NCBI GenBank assembly: GCA_028534125.1
Contig: CM052816.1
Span: 70,124,001 to 70,188,000 of the forward strand
DNA from: Lama glama
Taxonomy: Eukaryota
Length of the DNA: 64,000 nt
Direction of reading: 5' to 3'
The translations under genes were made by a program, and so were the position numbers. Every line of letters starts with the position of its first letter. Positions within the stretch are counted from its first letter, which is position 1. This document shows, piece by piece, positions 3,201-59,139 of this stretch. The notes beneath the pieces are model-generated. The model saw only the letters and a program-made list of their open reading frames with translations, made no database searches and was not told the origin of the DNA.

Positions 3201-5670
3201 GGTTTCCCAGAGCCAGAGAATATGCTGCGTGGCTAGCTGTTGAGCTTCTACACATTCTTCCCAGTTTTCTTTTGTTGACCCTGCTTCTAATCAGGCCCCT
3301 TTGGCTTACGGTGGGTGCAGCTGCTGTGGTTTAGTGCATATGTCTGGGGCAGAGATTCAATGAGCAGAGCTTAGATGCTGATGGAGTGACTATACCCTGG
3401 ATCTTTGTTTTCGGCACTCTTGCGTTTCCACTGATGTTAATTATGGCTGTGGAAACTGCGGGAGGGAGCAGATGGGAGCCCAAGTTACTGTCGTTCTTCC
3501 TTAGGAGAAATCCTTACAGTGCAGAGGTTTACTTTGGTTGACTGCTTGATGCCATGTCTCGGTCCTTTTGAGGTGATGTCCACCAGAAGGCAGCTTTTTT
3601 GAACAAGTGTTCTATTTTTTTTAAGGCTGCCCATGCATTTCTGAACAAGTTTCCTAGGAAGGGGCATTTGCAATTAGTTCTCCTCATTGGATTTCTGGAA
3701 ATCTCCTCCGTGAGGATGGGAATACCACCTCAGTCTTTGGATCATATTTTTGCCTTGGTGTGATTTTGCATCATCTGGGACAGAATTCCATGGAATCACA
3801 TGTATTTTCTTATGCTTTGGGTTTAGAAGTACAGTCAATGAATATATAGAAGTTCTTGAATGATTGCACCAATGTTGCATGATCCTGCCTTCTGTGCTGG
3901 CTTGATTTTTAAGAGAATGCTGGGCATAGTCAGATTCTGGCTTTCAGAATCATGGTTTTGTCTAGCACACTGCACAAATAGATGTACCCAAATTCAACTG
4001 GTGGTGAAGAGCAGATTTCATAGCTTTAGTAAAGTCTGCCACCAATCTAACATGCTGGCTTCATCATTATTTTAGAAGTTTAGGAAAACTTTTTTGTCAA
4101 GATACCTACTTGTTAAGATTTTGGTATAAGGGTCTGAGTTAGGCTAACAATATACATTGAACCGATAGTATCAAAGACGTGGAAATGAAGCAGATCAGGG
4201 TTAAGTTTAAATTCAAGAACCAAGTTCTGTGATTTTTGAGGATTATCCCTGATACCACAGAACTTGAACCTTTTGCTTCATTGAGAAAAAAAGCCTGTCT
4301 GTAGACAGATGTGACATTTGGACACTTGTTTTTATTACTGCATTCTATATTCTGCTTCTTATTAAAACTGCTCTTTTCCAAAAAGGTTTATATGCCTTGG
4401 TCAAAATAAAAACAAAAGAGATGAAGTGTAGCCATAGGAAGATTTCTGTTACTTATTAAGTAGAATGGTTGATATAAAATGATTAATGGGTATAAAAATT
4501 AGAGAAATATGTATTTAATATATGAAACATTTAGTGTATTTAGAAATGAGATGTCTTACACATTATGAAGTAAATTGCAATATTGGGGGATTAAGGAGGG
4601 ATTTACCTTTCTACTTTTGAGTATTTAAAGTCTTATAAAAATGTATTAATTTTGCAAAGAAAAAATGCGTATTGTCAATTTTGGCTATCTTTGAGGAGAA
4701 TACTAGCCTTCTATAAAGTGAAGCAGCATTTTTTAATGGTTGTTTAGGTACCTAAGGATAAAAGATAAATTCAAGCAGACTCTTAGATGAGAGAACTCTT
4801 GAGTATTCAGGTTCAGCATTCCTCAGAGATAAAATTGAAGAGAATAAACATTAAAATTTCGACTATTTGAATACAGAATGAAGCTTGCTCAGGTTTATAA
4901 ACGTGTGGCTATTCACTTTATTATACACAGCTACTTATGCTCTTGACCTATGAGGGAACAACAACAACAAAAAAGGTAGATCTGATCTCATTTCTTTAAA
5001 GATTGTCTAATTAAGGCAGAGAGTGAAGACTTGAACAGCAATGGACTAATCGCAAAGTAACCTAAAATCAAGTTAATGGCCATGTGGTACACATAGTATA
5101 CATAATTTCCAAAGGAATTCAAGATAAGAAAATATTTTGTGTGAATCTGTTAGTTAAGCTGTTCACGGTCATTATGTTTCCAAGACAGGATAATTTGAAA
5201 TGACAAATTCAACTCAAAAGATAAAGATGAATAAAGCATACTTAGTGTTCCCCAGAAGATAATAATTTTTATAATCTTTATAGGTAAAATGCTATAAAGC
5301 CTGTGCTTTTCATAAATTGGCACTATTTATTCCTCCATAAGTAATTAAATTTTCCAAAGAAGTCAAAGAAGTGGTCATAACATATGGAAAAGACCCCAAA
5401 AGAGAATTATTTTATTACGAGAAGAATGAATAGACGGGTAGTCCAGGCAGAAGCAGAAGAAACAGTGCCAATTTTTGAAAAGCACAGGCTTCTGAGGCAG
5501 GTACTGTAGCTGGTGAGTCCGGAAAGATTAAATTGTACAGGTTAATGGCATATTAAGACATTTAGATTTGATCTTGTAAACAATGTAGAGACATTAAAGG
5601 CCATAAAACATGACTAGATCTGTAACTGTTACTATGAAATACATCCAAAAATATTCAGGAATTGAAACAA

Positions 5671-5830
5671 GAGTTCCGGCTTGCGCAGCTGCAGTCCCGC
5701 CTCTGGGCAGAGGGTGCGCGCGCAGCGACGCCTGCGCCCAGCGGCCGTTTCTGCGGCGCAAGTCGGGAAGGACGCTGAGGTGGAGTTTCCAGCCCGGTGA
5801 ATCTGAGGCTTGGGCTGCGGCCCCATAAAG
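5671..5830 (+). promoter_or_regulatory. CpG-island-like segment derived from the VRK3 5' end, with ETS- and NRF1-like motifs
   Basis: 17 CpGs counted in 5671-5820 against an AT-rich, CpG-depleted background. Motifs ttccgg, tgcgcgcgca and gcctgcgc are present. Confidence 0.55.
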
Positions 5831-6310
5831 CATAATTACCTTCTGTCCAGATTGTGGCAGAAGTATGGGAGCACTGTGCGAATTCTGCCCCTAGCTCGGT
5901 GAACCTTTGCTCCCAGAGGAGCGTCAGGTCCCAGACCTTCGTCAGAGTGCTTGAAGCAGCCTTCTGAGGCTCGAGGAGGGGGCTGAATGCTGCTTCTGGA
6001 AATCTCTTTTAAGAAAGTGCAGTGGGCCAGCTCTGCCACCTCTCCATCAGCCCTCTTCTCAGACGGTGAGAGTCCTGGGTCTGAAGATACCTTGAGTCCC
6101 TTTGAGAGACCCAAAGGTCCTGGTGTAGACCCCAGCCCTCTAAAGCGGCCTGCACGCGACGAAGCGAAGCCCTCAAACACTGAAGTGAAACCAAGTGACC
6201 GCCTTGCTTGAGGCCTTGCCCGGGGAGACGGTACTGACAGACCGGAGTGGGCAGCACTGCAAACTATGGATCCCTCCGGACCAGGGATGATCAAGGCATT
6301 CTCTATTAAG
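5671..6310 (+). pseudogene. VRK3: VRK3 retro-pseudogene: 5' UTR plus spliced N-terminal coding exons, inactivated
   Basis: From 5832 it translates to (ATA)ITFCPDCGRSMGALCEFCP*, versus human VRK3 MISFCPDCGKSIQAAFKFCPY. Later segments SQTFV, KKVQWASSATSPSALFSDGESPGSEDTLSPFERPKG and SPQTLK*NQVTALLEALPGETVLTDRSGQHCKL..RTRDDQGILY* match VRK3 up to about residue 182. The start codon is ATG>ATA, there is a TAG at 5892-5894 plus frameshifts, and no introns lie between these segments. Confidence 0.93.
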
Positions 6311-6664
6311 GTACACTGTCCACGGAGGGCAGGTGCTGGGCTGGGCCCGGTCATCTCAGTGCCAGGGTGAGGGGAGGGGGACCCCTTTCTCCGAATGGGA
6401 ACGAAATCCATATCCCAGCTGCAGACCTGCCTCTAGGCAACCTTCTCTTAGACTAGGGACTGCAAACCTACCCCCTACAGTGACAGGGCAGGTAGAGTAA
6501 ATGAGTGCTGGACTCTGGGAGTAGGTAATTGGGAGTGGTGGGGACTGTGGCCAACTGGAGAGCTTGTGCCCGGAGTAAAGAGGGTTCTCTTCTTCAGTTG
6601 CACCTAGTGCTGTCATGTGGGAGTGCAGGCCCCAGTGTGGCTGATGGATAAGGATGATGATGAT
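6311..6664 (+). other. Probable retained VRK3 intron sequence within the retrocopy
   Basis: Starts with GT directly after ...ATTCTCTATTAAG, where VRK3 protein homology ends. It is GC-rich, unlike the flanking host DNA. Confidence 0.65.
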
Positions 6665-7028
6665 TGTTGTATAAACCCTGCAGAGAAAGGATGGACACCC
6701 CCCCACCCCCAAATTTGGCTTGATTGTTGAGACTGATGATGTCAGACATCAAGAGGATATGAAATGTTTATTGCTTGCATAACTGAGGTCTTTGGGGAGA
6801 GCAGGTTTGAAATGCCTTAAGAGAGCAAGGGAAGGAGTTTGGCCTGGGTTTTTGTTGTGGTTAAGGGGGCCAGGGCCTCACTTAGTTTGAATCCCTCACT
6901 GGCACCAAAGAAGGGAACACCCAGACTTTCTTATCAGCTTCCCAGATGTGGGTGGGTGGGGAAGAGACAGGGCCAGGCTTAAAAGCTGTCAGTTGTCAAA
7001 CATTAAAAAATTGAATCACTTTATTGCA
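6665..7028 (-). mobile_element. Solo LTR of ERVL class (MER76-like, tentative)
   Basis: TG...CA ends, a 5-bp TSD-like pair atgat/atgaa, an antisense polyA signal (gtttatt) near the left end, and terminal aaaagctgtcagttgtcaaacattaaaaa. Confidence 0.7.
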
Positions 7029-7069
7029 ATGAAGAAAATGATAACTGTGCAGGGGGTATTAGTATCAAT

Positions 7070-7130
7070 CATACCTAACATTCACTGAGTACTTACTCAA
7101 GGCCAGGCCCTGTTCTAAGTGCTTTATGTG
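7070..7130 (-). mobile_element. MIR SINE fragment
   Basis: taacattcactgagtacttact..ggccaggccctgttctaagtgcttta. Confidence 0.7.
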
Positions 7131-7148
7131 GTTTTTTGTTGTTGTTGC

Positions 7149-7413
7149 AATTTTTAAATTGAGATAAAATTCATATAACATAAAATTCACCATTTAAAGT
7201 GCATAGTTCAGTGGGTTTTAGTGTATTCACAATAGTATGTAACCATCACCCCTATCTAATTCCAGAACATTTCCATCATCTTAAAAGGAAGCCCCGTGGC
7301 TTTTAGTAGTCACTTCCTTTTCCTCTGGCTCTCTAGCCCTCGACAACCACTAATCTACTTTCTGTCTCCATTTGCCTGTTCCGGACTTTTCATGTAAATT
7401 GAATCATTCAATA
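7149..7413 (-). mobile_element. L1MB-type 3' end
   Basis: ttgagataaaattcatataacataaaattcacc..aaccactaatctactttctgtctc. Confidence 0.85.
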
Positions 7414-7869
7414 GAAACAAAAAACTCCAACAATTCAGATGGAAAGCCTATAGAGTAAGTTCATAGCTTCTCAAGCAGGTGCTGTTAACATTTCATACAT
7501 GTCTATTTAGCTAATCACACAACATATGATTGTGACCAAAAGGCACAAAGTATACAGTCTTCAGCACACTAAAACCTTTCCTATATAGTGCTAAAAATTA
7601 GATAATAGTTTTGTTTAAAGTTACAGCCTTTTGCTAAATATTATATAAAAAAGAAAACCTCCAAAGCAGTAAAAAAAAAAAAGATAACAAATAAACAAAC
7701 AAAAAACAACCAAAAAGCAAAAAGAAAAAGAAATTTACTATTTTAATGAAAAGATTTTGCTGGCTTCTCACTGCTCTTATTACTACTTGTACGAACACTT
7801 GCTATTTATCTTTTATTGAGGACCTATTATAGGCCAGATATTGTTTTGTTTTGTTTTACAAGTTAAAAA

Positions 7870-9460
7870 ATTTTTTTTTTCTGGAAAGAACACTAACATG
7901 AGATTTACCCTTTTAACTAATTTTAAAGTGTGTAAGTATATAACTGTTGACTGTGGGTACAGTGTTGTACAGCAGATCTCTAGATCTTATTTATCTTGCT
8001 TGACTGAAACTTTATGCCCATTGATTAGTTAATTCCCTATTTTCCCCCCCTGCACTTCTGACAATCCTGCTCTTTTGTTCTATGAATTTGACTATTTTAG
8101 ATACCTCATAAAAGTGGAATCATGTAATGTTTGTCCTCTGTGATTGGTTTATTACACTTCATATAATGGTTCATATTGTTGCATATTGCAGAATTTCCTT
8201 TTATTAAGGCCAAATAGTAGTCCATTGTATGTATATACCACAGTTTCCTTATCCATTCATCTATCCCATGGACATTTAGATTATTTCCACATCTTGGCTA
8301 TTGTGAATAGTGCTGCAGTGAGCAGAAGAGTGCTAATATCTCTTTGAGATCCTGATTTCAGTTCTTTTGGGTAAATACCCAGTAATGAGACTGTTGGATC
8401 CTATGGTAGTTCTATTTTTAATTTTTTGAGGAACTTCTATACTGTTTTCCATAGTAGCTGCACTATTTTACATTACCACCAATAGTGTCAGGGGCTTCAG
8501 TTTCTCCACACCCTCTAACACTTGTTTTGATTTATTTATGTATTTATTTATTAGCCTTCCTGACAGGTGTGAAGTGGTATCTTATTATGGTTTTGATTTA
8601 CAATTCCCAGATAATTAGTGACATTAAGCATCTGCATGTCTACTATCTATATGTCTACTTTGGAGAAATATCTCTGCAAGCTTTTAGTCTGTTTATAATT
8701 GCACTATTAGTTATTTTTGAGTTGTAGAAGTTTCTTATATATGTTTCATATTAACTCCTTATCAGATGGATAGTTTGCAAATATTTTTTCCTATCCCATA
8801 AGTTACCTTTTCACTCTGTTTCCTTTACTGTGTAGAACTTTTTAGTTTGGTAATAGTCCCGCTTGTTTGTTTATTTTTGTTGTCTGTGCTTTTGTCAGCA
8901 CAGCAATGATTTGGTGTCAAATCATTGCCAAGACCAATGTCATGAAGCTTTTTCCCTATTTTTCTTCTGGGATTTTTGTAGTTTCAGGTCTTGTATTTAA
9001 GTCTTTGATGTATTTTGGGTTGATTTTTTTGCTTATGGTGTAAGATAAGCATCCAATTTCATTGTTTTGCATATGGATATTGAGTTTTCCCAACATCATT
9101 TGTTGAAGAGACTGTTCTTTTGCCATTGTATGTTTTTGACATCCTTGCTGAATATCAATTGACCATATATATGTGGATTTATTTCTGGACTCTATTCTGT
9201 TCCGTTGGTGTATATGTTTGTCTTTATGCTAGTACCATTACTATGTTTTACAATATATTTTGAATTAAGGAAATGTGGTACTTCCAGCTTTGTTGTTCTT
9301 TCTCAAAATTGATTTGGCTCTTTGTGGTCTTTTGTTTTTCCGTATGAATTGTAGAATTTTTTTTCTCTTTCTGTGAAAAATGCCATTGGGTTTTAATAGG
9401 GATTGCATTGACTCTGTAGATTACTTTGAATAGTATAGCATTTTAACAATAGTAAGTCTA
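7870..9460 (-). mobile_element. L1MA-type element, 5' truncated (3' UTR plus end of ORF2)
   Basis: Poly-T head, tgttgtacagcagatctctagatcttatt, then continuous antisense ORF2 (cattgccaagaccaatgtca, catttgttgaagagactg, gggattgcattga). Confidence 0.92.
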
Positions 9461-10563: not shown

Positions 10564-10673
10564 CTTTTTGCTTATCAGCTCATGTTTGTAAGGCCTGTGT
10601 TTTTAAGGTAGTTATAATGTGTAAAAAAGATGTTATAACCCAAAATAAAATTGATAAATAAGAATAGTTGTTG
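10564..10673 (+). repeat. Copy 1 of a ~110-bp dispersed direct repeat
   Basis: ttatcagctcatgtttgtaaggcctgtgtttttaaggtagtt..caaaataaaattga..agttgttg, nearly identical to 11614-11729. Confidence 0.95.
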
Positions 10674-11613: not shown

Positions 11614-11729
11614 CTTTTTGATTATCAGCTCATGTTAGTAAGGCCTGTGTTTTTAAGGTAGTTGTAAATGTGTAAAAAAGATGTTATAATCCAAAATAAA
11701 ATTGAAAATATAAAAATAAAAAGTTGTTG
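11614..11729 (+). repeat. Copy 2 of the ~110-bp dispersed direct repeat
   Basis: Aligns with 10564-10673 with few substitutions or indels. Confidence 0.95.

Positions 11730-14973: not shown

Positions 14974-15044
<71 letters not shown>
14974..15044 (+). repeat. Perfect (CA)n microsatellite, about 35 units
   Basis: Read directly. Confidence 0.98.
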
Positions 15045-15048
<4 letters not shown>

Positions 15049-26882: not shown

Positions 26883-27020
26883 GGGGAGGGGGGGAGAGAG
26901 GGGGGGAGAGAGGAAAGAAAGGAAGGAAGGAAGGAAAGAAAGAAAGAAGGAAGGAAGGAAGGAAAGAAAGAAAGAAAGAAAGGAAGGAAGGAAGGAAGAA
27001 AGGAAGAATAGAGGAAGATG
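26883..27020 (+). repeat. Polypurine (GGAA/GAAA)n compound microsatellite
   Basis: Read directly. Confidence 0.95.
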
Positions 27021-32159: not shown

Positions 32160-32400
32160 TGATGATAACTAACAATTATTGAGCACTTCTTATATGCCAG
32201 GCACTAAACACTTTACGATTTATTTTCCTTTTACAAAAACAATGAGATAAGAAGTAGTGTTACTCACATTTTATAGATGAAGAAGTTCAGGCATAGGGAG
32301 GTTAAGTAAATTCCCCCAAGTCACATAACTAGTAAATGACAGAGTGGAGATTTATACCCAGGCAGGCTAACCTCCAGAGTCCACACTCCCTGTCACATTA
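32160..32400 (-). mobile_element. MIR SINE
   Basis: ttattgagcacttcttatatgccaggcact..cattttatagatgaagaa..gaggttaagtaa..ccaagtcaca. Confidence 0.85.
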
Positions 32401-54215: not shown

Positions 54216-54984
54216 CAAAACATATCGGATGGTGAGCTTCTTGAGGCTCTAGGGATCCACAGCAACATTCATCATTATCTCTCTCTCTTTAGCACCTGGC
54301 ATGGTGCCTGGCCATAGAAGCTATCCAAGAACTTCTGGAACTAAGATCTAGATTTGTTCTCTTATATTTCACATCCCTGGTATAATCCTCAGAGTTGGGC
54401 TTTACTCCTTTTGTACTGGTGGAGAATGGGGAGCTCCATAAGCCTCAACCCTGATGAGAAATTCCCTGATGCTCCTCCCCTCGGGAATCTCCCCAAAGCA
54501 CTTCTAAACCAGAAGAATGGGACTCCTAATCTTGACTCGTAGTTTGTTATGGCCTCAGCTCCTGGTTGTTCCTGCTGTAGATTGGATCCAGTGATGTGCT
54601 GCTCCCTGGCCACCCAGGCTGAGAACCTGAGAAGACACAGAAGTGAGTGCTGAGGTTTATCAGTGAGAGGGTAGCTCAGTCTAGGGTAAGAGTTGTTCCA
54701 AAGGAATATAATGAAGGGCACTTAAATCACCATAAACAAGTAAAATATTTATTTTTAAAGTATGCACAGGAAGGATGTGATGCTATTTTTATAAGAAGGG
54801 CAGAATTTCTTCATTTCCTGTTTTCCTAAGTAGAAGTCTCCAGTTTACTTTGCTTATAACCTAGACAAGCCCTAGAAAGAAATACTGCAGCTGAGAACTT
54901 TTTTGTTTTTCCTCCTTTTAGTCTCACCTTTGTGCTGTTTTCTAAGCACTAGTGACATCTTAACTTAAAACTTTAGCTGATCTA

Positions 54985-57900
54985 AAAAGAAGAAAGGAAC
55001 ATAAAAGAACCGTGAAAACAACCCCAAAACAATGAACAAAATGACAATAAGTACATACCTATCAATAATTATTTTAAATGTAAATGGACTAAATGCCACA
55101 GTCAAAAGATGTAGGGTAGCTGAATGGATACAAAAACAAGACCCTTATATATGCTGTCTACAGGAGACTCATTTCAGATCTAAAGACACAGACTGAAAGT
55201 GAGGACATAGAAAAAGGTATTCCATTTAAATAGAGACAAAAAGAAAGCTGGGTAACAATACTTATCTCAGACAAAATAGACTTTAAAACACAAAGACTTA
55301 CAAGAAACAAAGGACATTACATAATGATAAAGGGACCAGTTCAACAAGAGGATAGAACAATGGTAAATATATATGCATCAAACACAGTAGCACCTAAATA
55401 CATAAAGCATATATTAATTGACATAAAGAGAGAAATTGACAGTAATAAAATAATAGTAGGGGACTTTCATATCCCACTTACATCAATAGACAAATCATCC
55501 AAGTGGAAAAATCAATAAGGAAGCACTGGCCTTACATGACACATTAGCACTGGCCTTACATGACACATTAGACTGGATGATGGACTTTATAAATATATAT
55601 ATAAACATTCTATTCCAAAGAAGCAGAATACACATCCTTTTCAAGTGCACAGGGAACATTCTCCAGGATATATCACATGCTAGGACATCAGACATGTCTC
55701 AGTAAATTTAAGAAGATTGAAATCATATCAATCATTTTTTCCAATCACAGTGCTATGAGGCTAGAAACCAACTACAAGAAAAACACTGCAAAAAAACATG
55801 TTAACATGGATGCAAAGCAATATGCTACTAAACAACCAGTGGATCACTGAGGAAATCAAAGAAGAAATAAAAAAATTTCTAGAGACAAATGAAAATGAAA
55901 ACACAGTGATATAAAATCTATGCAATGCAGCAAAAGCAGTTCTAAGGGGAAGTTTTAAAGCAATATAAGCGAACATCAAGAAACAATAAAAAATCTCAAG
56001 TAAACAACCTAACCTTACATCTAAAGGAGCTAGAGAAAGAAAAACAAACAAAACCCAAAGTTAGTAGAAGGAAAGAAATCATAAAGAAAAAACAAACAAA
56101 ACCCAAAGTTAGTAGAAGGAAAGAAATCATAAAGATTGGAGCAGAAATAAATGAAATAGAGACTAAAAAAAAAAAATAGAAAAGATCAATGAAACTATAA
56201 GCTGGTTCTTTGAAAAGATAAAATCGATGAATCTTTAGCTCAACTCATCAAGAAAAAAGAGAGACCTCAAATCAATAAAATTAGAAATTGAAAAGGAGAC
56301 ATTACAGCTGACAACAGAGAAATACAAAGGGTCATTAAGATATTACTATGAACAATTATATGCCAATAAAATGGACAACCTTGAAGAAGCGGACACATTT
56401 CCAGAAATGTACAATCTCCTAAGACTGAATCAGGAAGAAATAAAGTTATAAATAGACCAATTATCAATAATGAAATTGATTCAATAATTTAAAAAACTGT
56501 CAACAAACAAAAGTTCAGGACCAGATGGCTTCACAAGTGAATTCTACCAAACATTTAGAGAAGAGTTCACATCTATCTTCTCAAATTATTCCAAGTATTG
56601 GTGAGGAAGCAATGCTTTCCAAACTCATTTTATGAGACCAGTATCATCACTCTGATACCAAAACCAGACAAAGATATCTCCAAAAAGGAAACTTACAGGC
56701 CAGTATCACTGGTGAACATAGATGCAAAAATCCTCAACAAAATATTAGCAAACCATATTCAACAATACATTAAAAAGATCGTACCAGAGGATCAAGTGGG
56801 AGGCCAGGGATGCAAGGATGGTTCAATATCAACAAATCAATACACCATATTAACAAACTGAAGAATTAAAATCATATGATCATCTCAATAGGTGCAAAAA
56901 AAGCTTTTAACAGAATTCAGCATTCATTTATGATAAACACTCAACAAAGTGGTTATAGAGGGAACATAATAAAGGCCATAAATGATGAGCCCACAGCTAA
57001 CAACCTACTCAACGGTGAAAGCTGAAAGCATTTACTCTAAGATCAGAAATGAGACAAGGATGCTCATTCTTGCCACTTTTATTCGACATAGTATTGGAAG
57101 TCCTAGCCACAGCAATCAAAGAAGAAAAAGAAATAAAAGAATCCAATTGGAAAGGAAGAAGTAAAATTGTCACTATTTGTAGATGACATGATACTATAAA
57201 TAGAGAATTCTAAAGATGTCACCAAAAAAAACCTACTAGAACTCATTAATGAATTCAGTAAAGTTGCAGGATATGAACTTAATATATAGGAATTTGTTGT
57301 ATTTTAATGTATTAACAACCAACTATCAGAAAGAGCAATTAAGAAAACAATCCCATTCATAATCACATCAAAAAGAATAAAATGCTTGGGAATAAATCTA
57401 ACTAAGGAAGTAAAAGACCTGTACTTGGAAAACTATAAGGCAATGATGAAAGAAAATGAAGACAATACAAACAGGTGGAAAGGTATACCTTACTCTGGGA
57501 TTGGAAGAATCAATATTGTTAAAATGACCATACTTCCCAATGCAGTCTATAGATTCAGTGCAATCTCTATCAAAATAGCAATGGCGTTTTTCACAGAACT
57601 AAAACAAATAATTCTAAAATTTGTATGGAAACACAAAAGACCCCGGAAAGCCAGAACAATCTTGAGAAAGAAGAACAAAGCTGGAGGTATTTTGCTCCCT
57701 GGTTTCAAGCTATATTACAAAGCTACAGTAATCAAAACAGTGTGGTACTGGCACAAAAAGATCATTGGAGTAGAATAGAGAGCCCTGAAACAAAACCACA
57801 TTTTTATGGTCAATTATTCTACAAAAATGAGGCAAAAATATATAATGGGAGAAAGACAACCACTTCAATAAATGATGTTGGGAAAAGAGTCAAACTGGAT

Positions 57901-58880
57901 TACTTTCTCACACCATATAAAACAAAAACTTAAAATGGACTTAAAGGCTTATATTTAAGACCTGAAACCATAAAACACCTAGAAGAAAGCATAGGTGGTA
58001 GGCTCTTTGAAATCAGTTTTAGCAGTATTTTTTTGGATCTGTCTCCTCAGGCAAAGAAACAAAAGCAAAAATAAACAAATGGGACTACATCAAACTAAAA
58101 GCTTTTGCACAGTGAAGGAAACTAACAACAAAATGAAAAGACTGCCTATTAAATGGGAGAAGATACTTGCAAACAACATACCTAGCAAGGGGCTAATAAT
58201 AAAAAATATGCAAAGAACTCATTAGAACACAACATCAGGAAAACAACCAACCCAATTAAAAAATGGACGGAGAACCTGAATAGACATTTTTTTCAAAGAA
58301 GACGTATGTATTGCCAACAAGCACATGAAAAGATACTCAGCATCACTAATCGTCAGGGAGATGGAAATCAAAATTACAATGAAATATCACCTTATACCTG
58401 TCAGAATGGCTTTATTGAAAAGACAACAAATAGCAAGTGTTGGCAAGAATGTTGAGAAAAGGGAACCACTGTGTGCACTGTTGTTTGGAATGTAAATAGG
58501 TGTAGCCACTATGGAAAACAGCATGGAAATTACTAAAAAAATTAAAATTAAAACTACCATACTATCCAGAAATTCCATTTCTGAGTACTTCTCCAAAGAA
58601 AACAAAAACACTAATTCAAAAAGATATATGCCTCCCCACTACCATGTTCATTGCAGCATTGTTTACAGTAGCTAAGATATGGAATCAACCTAAGTGCTCA
58701 TCAATATATGGATAAAGAAGATGTGGTATATAAACAGTGGAATATTACTCAGCCATAAAAAAGAATGAAATCTTGCCATTTATGACAACATGGATGAACC
58801 TAGATCGTACTATGCTAAGTGAAATAAGTCAGACAAAGACAAATACTGTATGATTTCACTTATCTGTGGAATCTAAACAA
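54985..58880 (+). mobile_element. L1 with near-complete but disrupted ORF2 (endonuclease, RT and C-terminal regions)
   Basis: ATG at 55041 begins MTISTYLSIIILNVNGLN..ICCLQETH (APE endonuclease). Also [36 protein letters not shown], and RT motif FVDDM at 57176-57190. Many stops and frameshifts. Confidence 0.96.
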
Positions 58881-59139
58881 GAAAAGTCCAGGATCAAGGT
58901 GCTGGCAGATTTGGTTTCTTGGTGAAGGCAGTTTCGCTGGCTTGTAGATAGCTGTCTTCTTGTTGTATCCTCACATGGTGGACAGATGGGTACTAATCCC
59001 ATCATGGGGGCTCTGTTCTCATGACCTCAAATTAACTTAATTATTCCTCAAAGGCCCCACCTCCAAATACCATCACATTGGGGATTAGGACCTCAACATA
59101 TGAATTTTGGGGTTATGCACACATTTAGTCCATAGTACA
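58881..59139 (-). mobile_element. MLT1A-type MaLR LTR, partial
   Basis: aagtccaggatcaaggtgctggcaga..aaaggccccacctccaaataccatcacattgggg..caacatatgaattttgggg. Confidence 0.88.

Follow-up and report, generated by a model that had tools for sequence, protein, structure and literature searches.

The window, by which we mean the whole 64,000-nt stretch of llama (Lama glama) DNA that we analysed, contains between 5671 and 6310 what is confirmed at the level of sequence as an old copy of VRK3, with the leader and the coding exons fused at the expected junctions. The features of the copy, of the intron material that follows it, and of its flanks are listed in Table 1. The numbering of VRK3 exons and the repeat names LTR, MIR and L1MB are used as we take them to apply.

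Table 1. The VRK3 copy and its surroundings, in coordinates of the window.
Feature	Position	Strand	Evidence
Candidate target-site duplication (TSD), 5' copy; 7-nt core at 5664-5670 after TT, like an L1 endonuclease site	5660..5670	+	10/11 match to 7410-7420
VRK3 5' leader (first exon), CpG-rich	5671..5830	+	P0191 leader alignment; CpG count
Start-codon exon with zinc-ribbon CxxC..CxxC; start mutated, stop at a Tyr codon, no intron before it	5831..5969	+	alignment
Ser-rich exon (equivalent of c.140-289), fused on both sides	5970..6117	+	skipped as a unit in P0067, P0072 and P0009; P0047
Exon up to the c.547-equivalent donor, start of the pseudokinase N-lobe; frameshifted, stop at 6307-6309	6118..6310	+	PDB 2jii (E 0.023); alignment
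Retained parental intron, with weak donor GTACAC at its start, running into the LTR	6311..6782	+	P0081, ruminant-like tails, P0195
Old solo-LTR-like element; first 55 nt common to the parental intron	6725..7028	-	sequence; P0080/P0081
Putative rest of the retained intron: LTR remainder, MIR-like piece, antisense L1M-type 3' end breaking at 7412/7413	6783..7413	+	comparison with the parent reaches only ~6782
Candidate TSD, 3' copy, within a short A-rich stretch, possible tail remnant	7414..7420	+	exact 7-nt core

A phmmer search of 1.84 billion representatives with the read-through of 5832-6305 returned 18 hits. By sequence, 14 of these are VRK3 or derived from VRK3, and the clusters that carry a name are VRK3; left out of the count were P0003, P0011 and P0013, which show low identity spread over many stretches, and P0016, a generic zinc ribbon. 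Ubiquitin matches were rejected as repeat-summed noise (1.9 bits per stretch). The Pfam domain Zn_Ribbon_1 is found on the intact relatives P0058 and P0007, and Pfam gave no match on any of the three window translations. An Rfam search over 5200-7100 returned no matches, none of the 70 candidates of a word search with the 74-aa ORF proved to be a match, and scans for host VRK3 DNA confirmed no pattern match in contigs from metagenomes (0/285) or viruses (0/10).

The leader of camel VRK3 isoform X1 (P0191) aligns with 5683-5858 at 35 of 57 residues and leads straight into the start-codon exon. Similarity to the parent begins at 5683 and does not extend into the upstream flank. The alignment of the leader from this position implies that the copy starts at the 5' end of a transcript. 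At the position equivalent to 5830/5831 the parent presumably has an intron, which the macaque model P0018 fits by beginning a single base upstream of the start codon. The junctions in the coding region, at c.139, c.289 and c.547, follow from two isoforms: in the exon-skip isoform P0067 of the chimpanzee, residue 47 is followed by a gap of 50 residues, and in the partial isoform P0069 the last residue is 182. P0047, a genomic ORF from ruminant-like host DNA, reads through an exon, about 80 intron codons and the next exon, and the same two exons are fused in the window at 6117/6118; the c.289 intron is thus present in P0047 and gone from the copy, while the c.139 junction is set by the isoforms. 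Homology to the mRNA ends at 6310/6311, where an AAG/GTAC donor is located. These results bear out two claims of a first-pass annotation that had been made from the letters alone, namely that VRK3 homology extends from the 5' UTR to exactly this donor, and that the exon boundaries fall after c.139, c.289 and c.547 with the first two fused. In the 64-kb window tblastn found no VRK3 exons that follow c.547 (best E 1.4-1.8 for all three C-terminal queries, compared to 1e-15 for the N-terminal control), and no other VRK3 exons beyond the copy.

The same annotation had described the homology as uninterrupted; it is continuous, but the frame is not open. In an alignment guided by the horse sequence the start codon reads ATA, and the copy has four frameshifts and three internal stops in addition to the stop at 6307-6309. 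The open reading frame expected of a functional retrogene is therefore not retained. The VRK3 copy is dead, and nothing found here shows a function for it. The leader contains 17 CpG in 160 nt, with an observed/expected ratio of 0.91 versus 0.14 for the window and 0.16 for the intron part of the copy, and the next best 160-nt stretch outside the copy has seven. The setting of the copy is AT-rich. Perhaps the leader escaped methylation, and it might serve as a promoter. Two RNA runs, both from the same study, contain words of the locus at 0.30-0.31; four smaller shares (0.09-0.18) carry no weight as evidence.

Several other features of the window were recorded. About 180 nt upstream of the copy lies a 36-nt inverted repeat (5297-5332 and 5456-5491, 33/36 matching) that looks like a small non-autonomous DNA transposon. 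A direct repeat of about 110 nt (10564-10673 and 11614-11729; 104 of 116 columns identical) has its two copies 1050 nt apart. There are also a long CA repeat at 14975-15045, a purine-rich (GGAA/GAAA) microsatellite at 26885-27010, and an A-skewed stretch at about 54900-58900, whose plus-strand translation we take to be that of a decayed L1 ORF2.

For comparison with the DNA that follows 6310 we used gene-caller ORFs, located on genomic contigs from other mammals, that cross from the c.547 exon into the intron. We regard these ORFs as parental because they start in the preceding intron and their exon is intact. Their intron tails were aligned to 6311-7100 with frameshifts allowed and 12 shuffles each, all of the intron evidence being at the level of protein. 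Ten of the 15 read-through tails score clearly above their shuffles, one is tied (P0007), and four are not above them (P0006, P0010, P0060 and P0062); the tails that tied or failed are short or distant, and the ten include two duplicates that are not parents, P0071 and P0058. Three spliced controls, which continue into downstream exons, score at background. The first 130 residues of the cetacean-like tail P0081 score 294 versus a maximum of 43 in 12 shuffles, and at full length this tail is identical at 93 of 144 positions over 6317-6779. The ruminant-like tails span 6328-6686, and the dromedary model P0195 has the same intron start. These protein comparisons show that the sequence directly after 6310 is parental VRK3 intron over at least 470 nt. 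An unspliced parental intron at this place had been postulated in the first-pass annotation; the similarity on which that idea depended is now found over the 470 bases that follow 6310, far enough to take in the beginning of the LTR. The tail of P0081 ends about 55 nt within the LTR, which implies that the LTR, presumably MER76-like, was in the parental intron before the copying. The remainder of the stretch up to 7413 was aligned to other parts of the window: the MIR-like piece matches a copy at 32162-32205 (73%, E 0.27), and there is a weak alignment of the L1M-type piece with a copy at 8021-8128 that ends at 7412, a point reached in one of three comparisons.

The copy looks older than the camelids. 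Compared to 26 VRK3 N-terminal parts its identity is 53-62%, highest to horse and with no excess for camelids, and it is about 60% identical to all boreoeutherian VRK3s. Its branch has a length of 0.5-0.6 changes per site and is placed outside Cetartiodactyla by three trees, although the data do not reject a tree that joins the copy to camelids (p-AU 0.096 and 0.20). Four codons precede the first Cys in the copy, as they do in 21 of 21 non-cetartiodactyl rows of the analysis table and in none of the 16 cetartiodactyl ones; beyond the table, three codons also occur in some rodent rows. Given that the host is a camelid, the placement of the copy outside Cetartiodactyla and the four-codon trait suggest that the insertion predates the cetartiodactyl crown.

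A decayed ORF, P0071, aligns over 5634-6433 (162/256) and has the same anatomy as the window copy. The two have derived changes in common: the loss of one base, and Ser-Gly-Leu where the parents have Ser-Pro. P0071 also resembles the 13 flank codons before the junction, with a score that is equalled by 0.15% of 7858 random placements and, by back-translation, by 1.6%. Unanchored, the similarity of the flank is weak, the best local hit lying elsewhere at a level that 2% of 300 random stretches reach. P0071 is probably the orthologous copy in another mammal. Another decayed copy, the 99-aa Logan sequence P0014, has fused exons and the start of the intron; it has a 7-codon deletion in common with P0071 and is without the changes that P0071 shares with the window. 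Words of the copy are present at 0.94-0.99 in 14 DNA runs from five coded organisms.

Taken with the spliced early exons, these observations make it very probable that the locus is a semi-processed, 3'-truncated retropseudogene of VRK3. L1 proteins in the germ line of an early placental ancestor would have reverse-transcribed a VRK3 RNA in which the leader and the first three coding exons were spliced, in which the weak c.547 donor was unused, and which ended about 1.1 kb into the c.547 intron. The product would then have entered a TT/AAAA-like site through target-primed L1 insertion, as can be expected from what is described of L1 biology (PMC4151081, PMC5470649). A partial duplication of VRK3 at the DNA level, followed by exact loss of the early introns, would likewise carry intron sequence; however, two or three introns would have had to be lost precisely from a dead copy, and the copy begins with the transcript leader, downstream of a flank that differs from the parent. 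We consider this origin very improbable. Hardly credible is a plain 3'-truncated processed pseudogene, or a chimera that arose by template switching to an unrelated RNA after 6310, as the match of 6317-6779 to the parental intron refutes both for 6311-6782.

The retropseudogene would end at 7413. The expected number of chance TSD matches in the 3' search zone is 0.10 for an 11-mer with one mismatch and 0.28 for an exact 7-mer, which taken alone is not significant; the candidate gains weight because it coincides with the break of the L1M-type piece at 7412, itself seen in a weak alignment. A semi-processed copy might instead end somewhere in 6783-7409, the MIR and L1M-type pieces then belonging to the host site, or have its true tail in the A-rich tract at 7645-7735 (65/91 A). 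The chance odds of the TSD (10-28%) and weaker look-alikes at 7009 and 7397 leave room for such an end, and the repeats are old enough to have predated the insertion at either locus. Nevertheless, beyond 7420 the GC content drops and CpG vanishes, the look-alike at 7009 is inside the LTR, and the A-rich tract has no better TSD partner, the best one being 15 nt long with two mismatches and ending 19 nt before the 5' junction. An end at either of these places is quite unlikely.

The first-pass annotation had proposed a partly spliced template, either a nuclear pre-mRNA or an intron-polyadenylated isoform. The match at 6317-6779 agrees with partial splicing. We give about even chances to an RNA that was polyadenylated within the intron, its short tail having since blended into the A-rich target site. 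A realistic but lesser possibility is internal priming, in which the nicked T-rich target strand annealed within an unfinished nuclear pre-mRNA and gave rise to a tailless retropseudogene; the copy would then record the order of splicing and not an isoform. This explanation has to account for the 12 A among the 16 nucleotides of 7410-7425, in a copy old enough to have lost a tail, and for a hexamer, 15 nt before the end of the copy, that is one transition off TATAAA and that we take to be a weak poly(A) signal. In its favor, no run of A separates the L1M-type piece from the 3' TSD copy, which starts right after the last base of that piece, and tailless copies of mRNAs have been described and ascribed to internal priming (PMC5322556).

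Semi-processed pseudogenes are uncommon and already known as a class, to which the VRK3 copy adds a case. The TMF1 pseudogene in intron 1 of human CYBB is similar in that its 5' exons are spliced, it ends in a downstream intron, and the 3' part of the gene is absent; as described in PMC4151081, it is a new insertion with two introns kept and a 100-nt poly(A) tail after AGUAAA, whereas the VRK3 copy is ancient, is fixed in five coded organisms, keeps one intron and has no clear tail. The semi-processed preproinsulin I retrogene of rodents also keeps one parental intron, but according to the same source it is full length and functional (PMC4151081), and the VRK3 copy is truncated and dead. The tailless retropseudogenes described for therians (PMC5322556) resemble the copy in being 3'-truncated with the TSD right after the last templated base; unlike it, those treated in that source are mostly derived from small RNAs, L1 and histone mRNAs. 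We found no paper on a retrocopy, retrogene or pseudogene copy of VRK3 in a search that had most subscription journals outside its reach.

A second duplicate ends at the same place in VRK3. In RefSeq, Delphinus delphis has a 175-aa VRK3-like protein (XP_059871386) on a chromosome-size contig of 115.5 Mb, whereas VRK3 itself is on a contig of 59.5 Mb. The VRK3-like protein comprises the same exons as the window copy and reads into the same intron, and its orthologues in Monodon and Sousa end at or just past the same donor (the proteins from the three genera are P0058, P0076, P0077 and P0078). The three cluster as a single clade within Cetacea (100/96), and a tree that unites them with the window copy is rejected (p-AU 0.0002 and 0.006), which identifies the delphinoid paralogue as an independent duplicate. 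It is a candidate retrocopy or a candidate DNA duplication, and the protein evidence is compatible with both. Its frame is open over 160 codons. In Monodon a zinc-ligand Cys of the paralogue is gone, and so is its Pfam match, which looks like drift.

What the two duplicates have in common is the donor. The retained donor, AAG/GTACAC, departs at +4 to +6 from what we take to be the consensus. Among stored read-through proteins 51 of 55 continue with Gly-Thr after the exon, which translates into a parental donor G/GTAC; the 55 rows are redundant and represent seven mammal groups, with ruminant-, cetacean-, camel-, primate-, bat-, rodent- and dog-like sequences. Judging from these proteins, the c.547 donor is weak in the parent across mammals. 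Weak donors favor slow splicing and intronic polyadenylation. The weakness would explain why the RNA lingered unspliced and why the delphinoid duplicate ends at the same place. VRK3 isoform X7 of the dingo in RefSeq (P0158) uses a donor 15 nt further downstream; in this isoform and in dromedary P0195, the c.547 exon is lengthened by a few codons into the intron and is followed by later exons, consistent with a weak donor. Logan contigs that lead from spliced exons into the c.547 intron were found in three mammals, one fruit-bat-like (P0060), one rodent-like (P0164) and one unplaced (P0007). Since chimeric assembly paths occur, these contigs are no more than suggestive of present-day read-through products; the earlier suggestion that the copy might be the fossil of a lost isoform was therefore too strong.

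Our search of the literature found no description of a weak spot at the c.547 donor of VRK3. In human, an isoform of VRK3 that arises by intronic polyadenylation has a poison exon at chr19:49,981,818-49,982,188, which its primer places close to where the coding region ends (PMC13187750). As presented in that source, this parallels the copy in that VRK3 makes RNAs that terminate in an intron, tissue-specifically, but the intron is a late one and not the one retained in the copy. VRK3 RNAs that are truncated or have an alternative last exon are mentioned elsewhere as well (PMC11541570; bioRxiv 10.64898/2026.10.21.760529).

Retrocopies are dated snapshots of germ-line RNA, and the copy in the llama indicates that tens of millions of years ago there was a VRK3 RNA from which the early introns had been removed but not the c.547 intron. 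A broader scenario, which we regard as somewhat unlikely, is that owing to the weak donor the VRK3 RNA of the germ line ended in the c.547 intron through most of placental history, and that L1 copied it at least twice, in an early ancestor (giving rise to the window copy and P0071) and in delphinoids; the 160-codon frame of the latter, with the zinc ribbon and the Ser-rich region and without the pseudokinase, could then be a young retrogene. The second duplicate at the same donor and the current read-through point to a lasting weak spot in the splicing of VRK3, and the prediction that follows is a poly(A) site or a pause in splicing about 1.1 kb into the c.547 intron.
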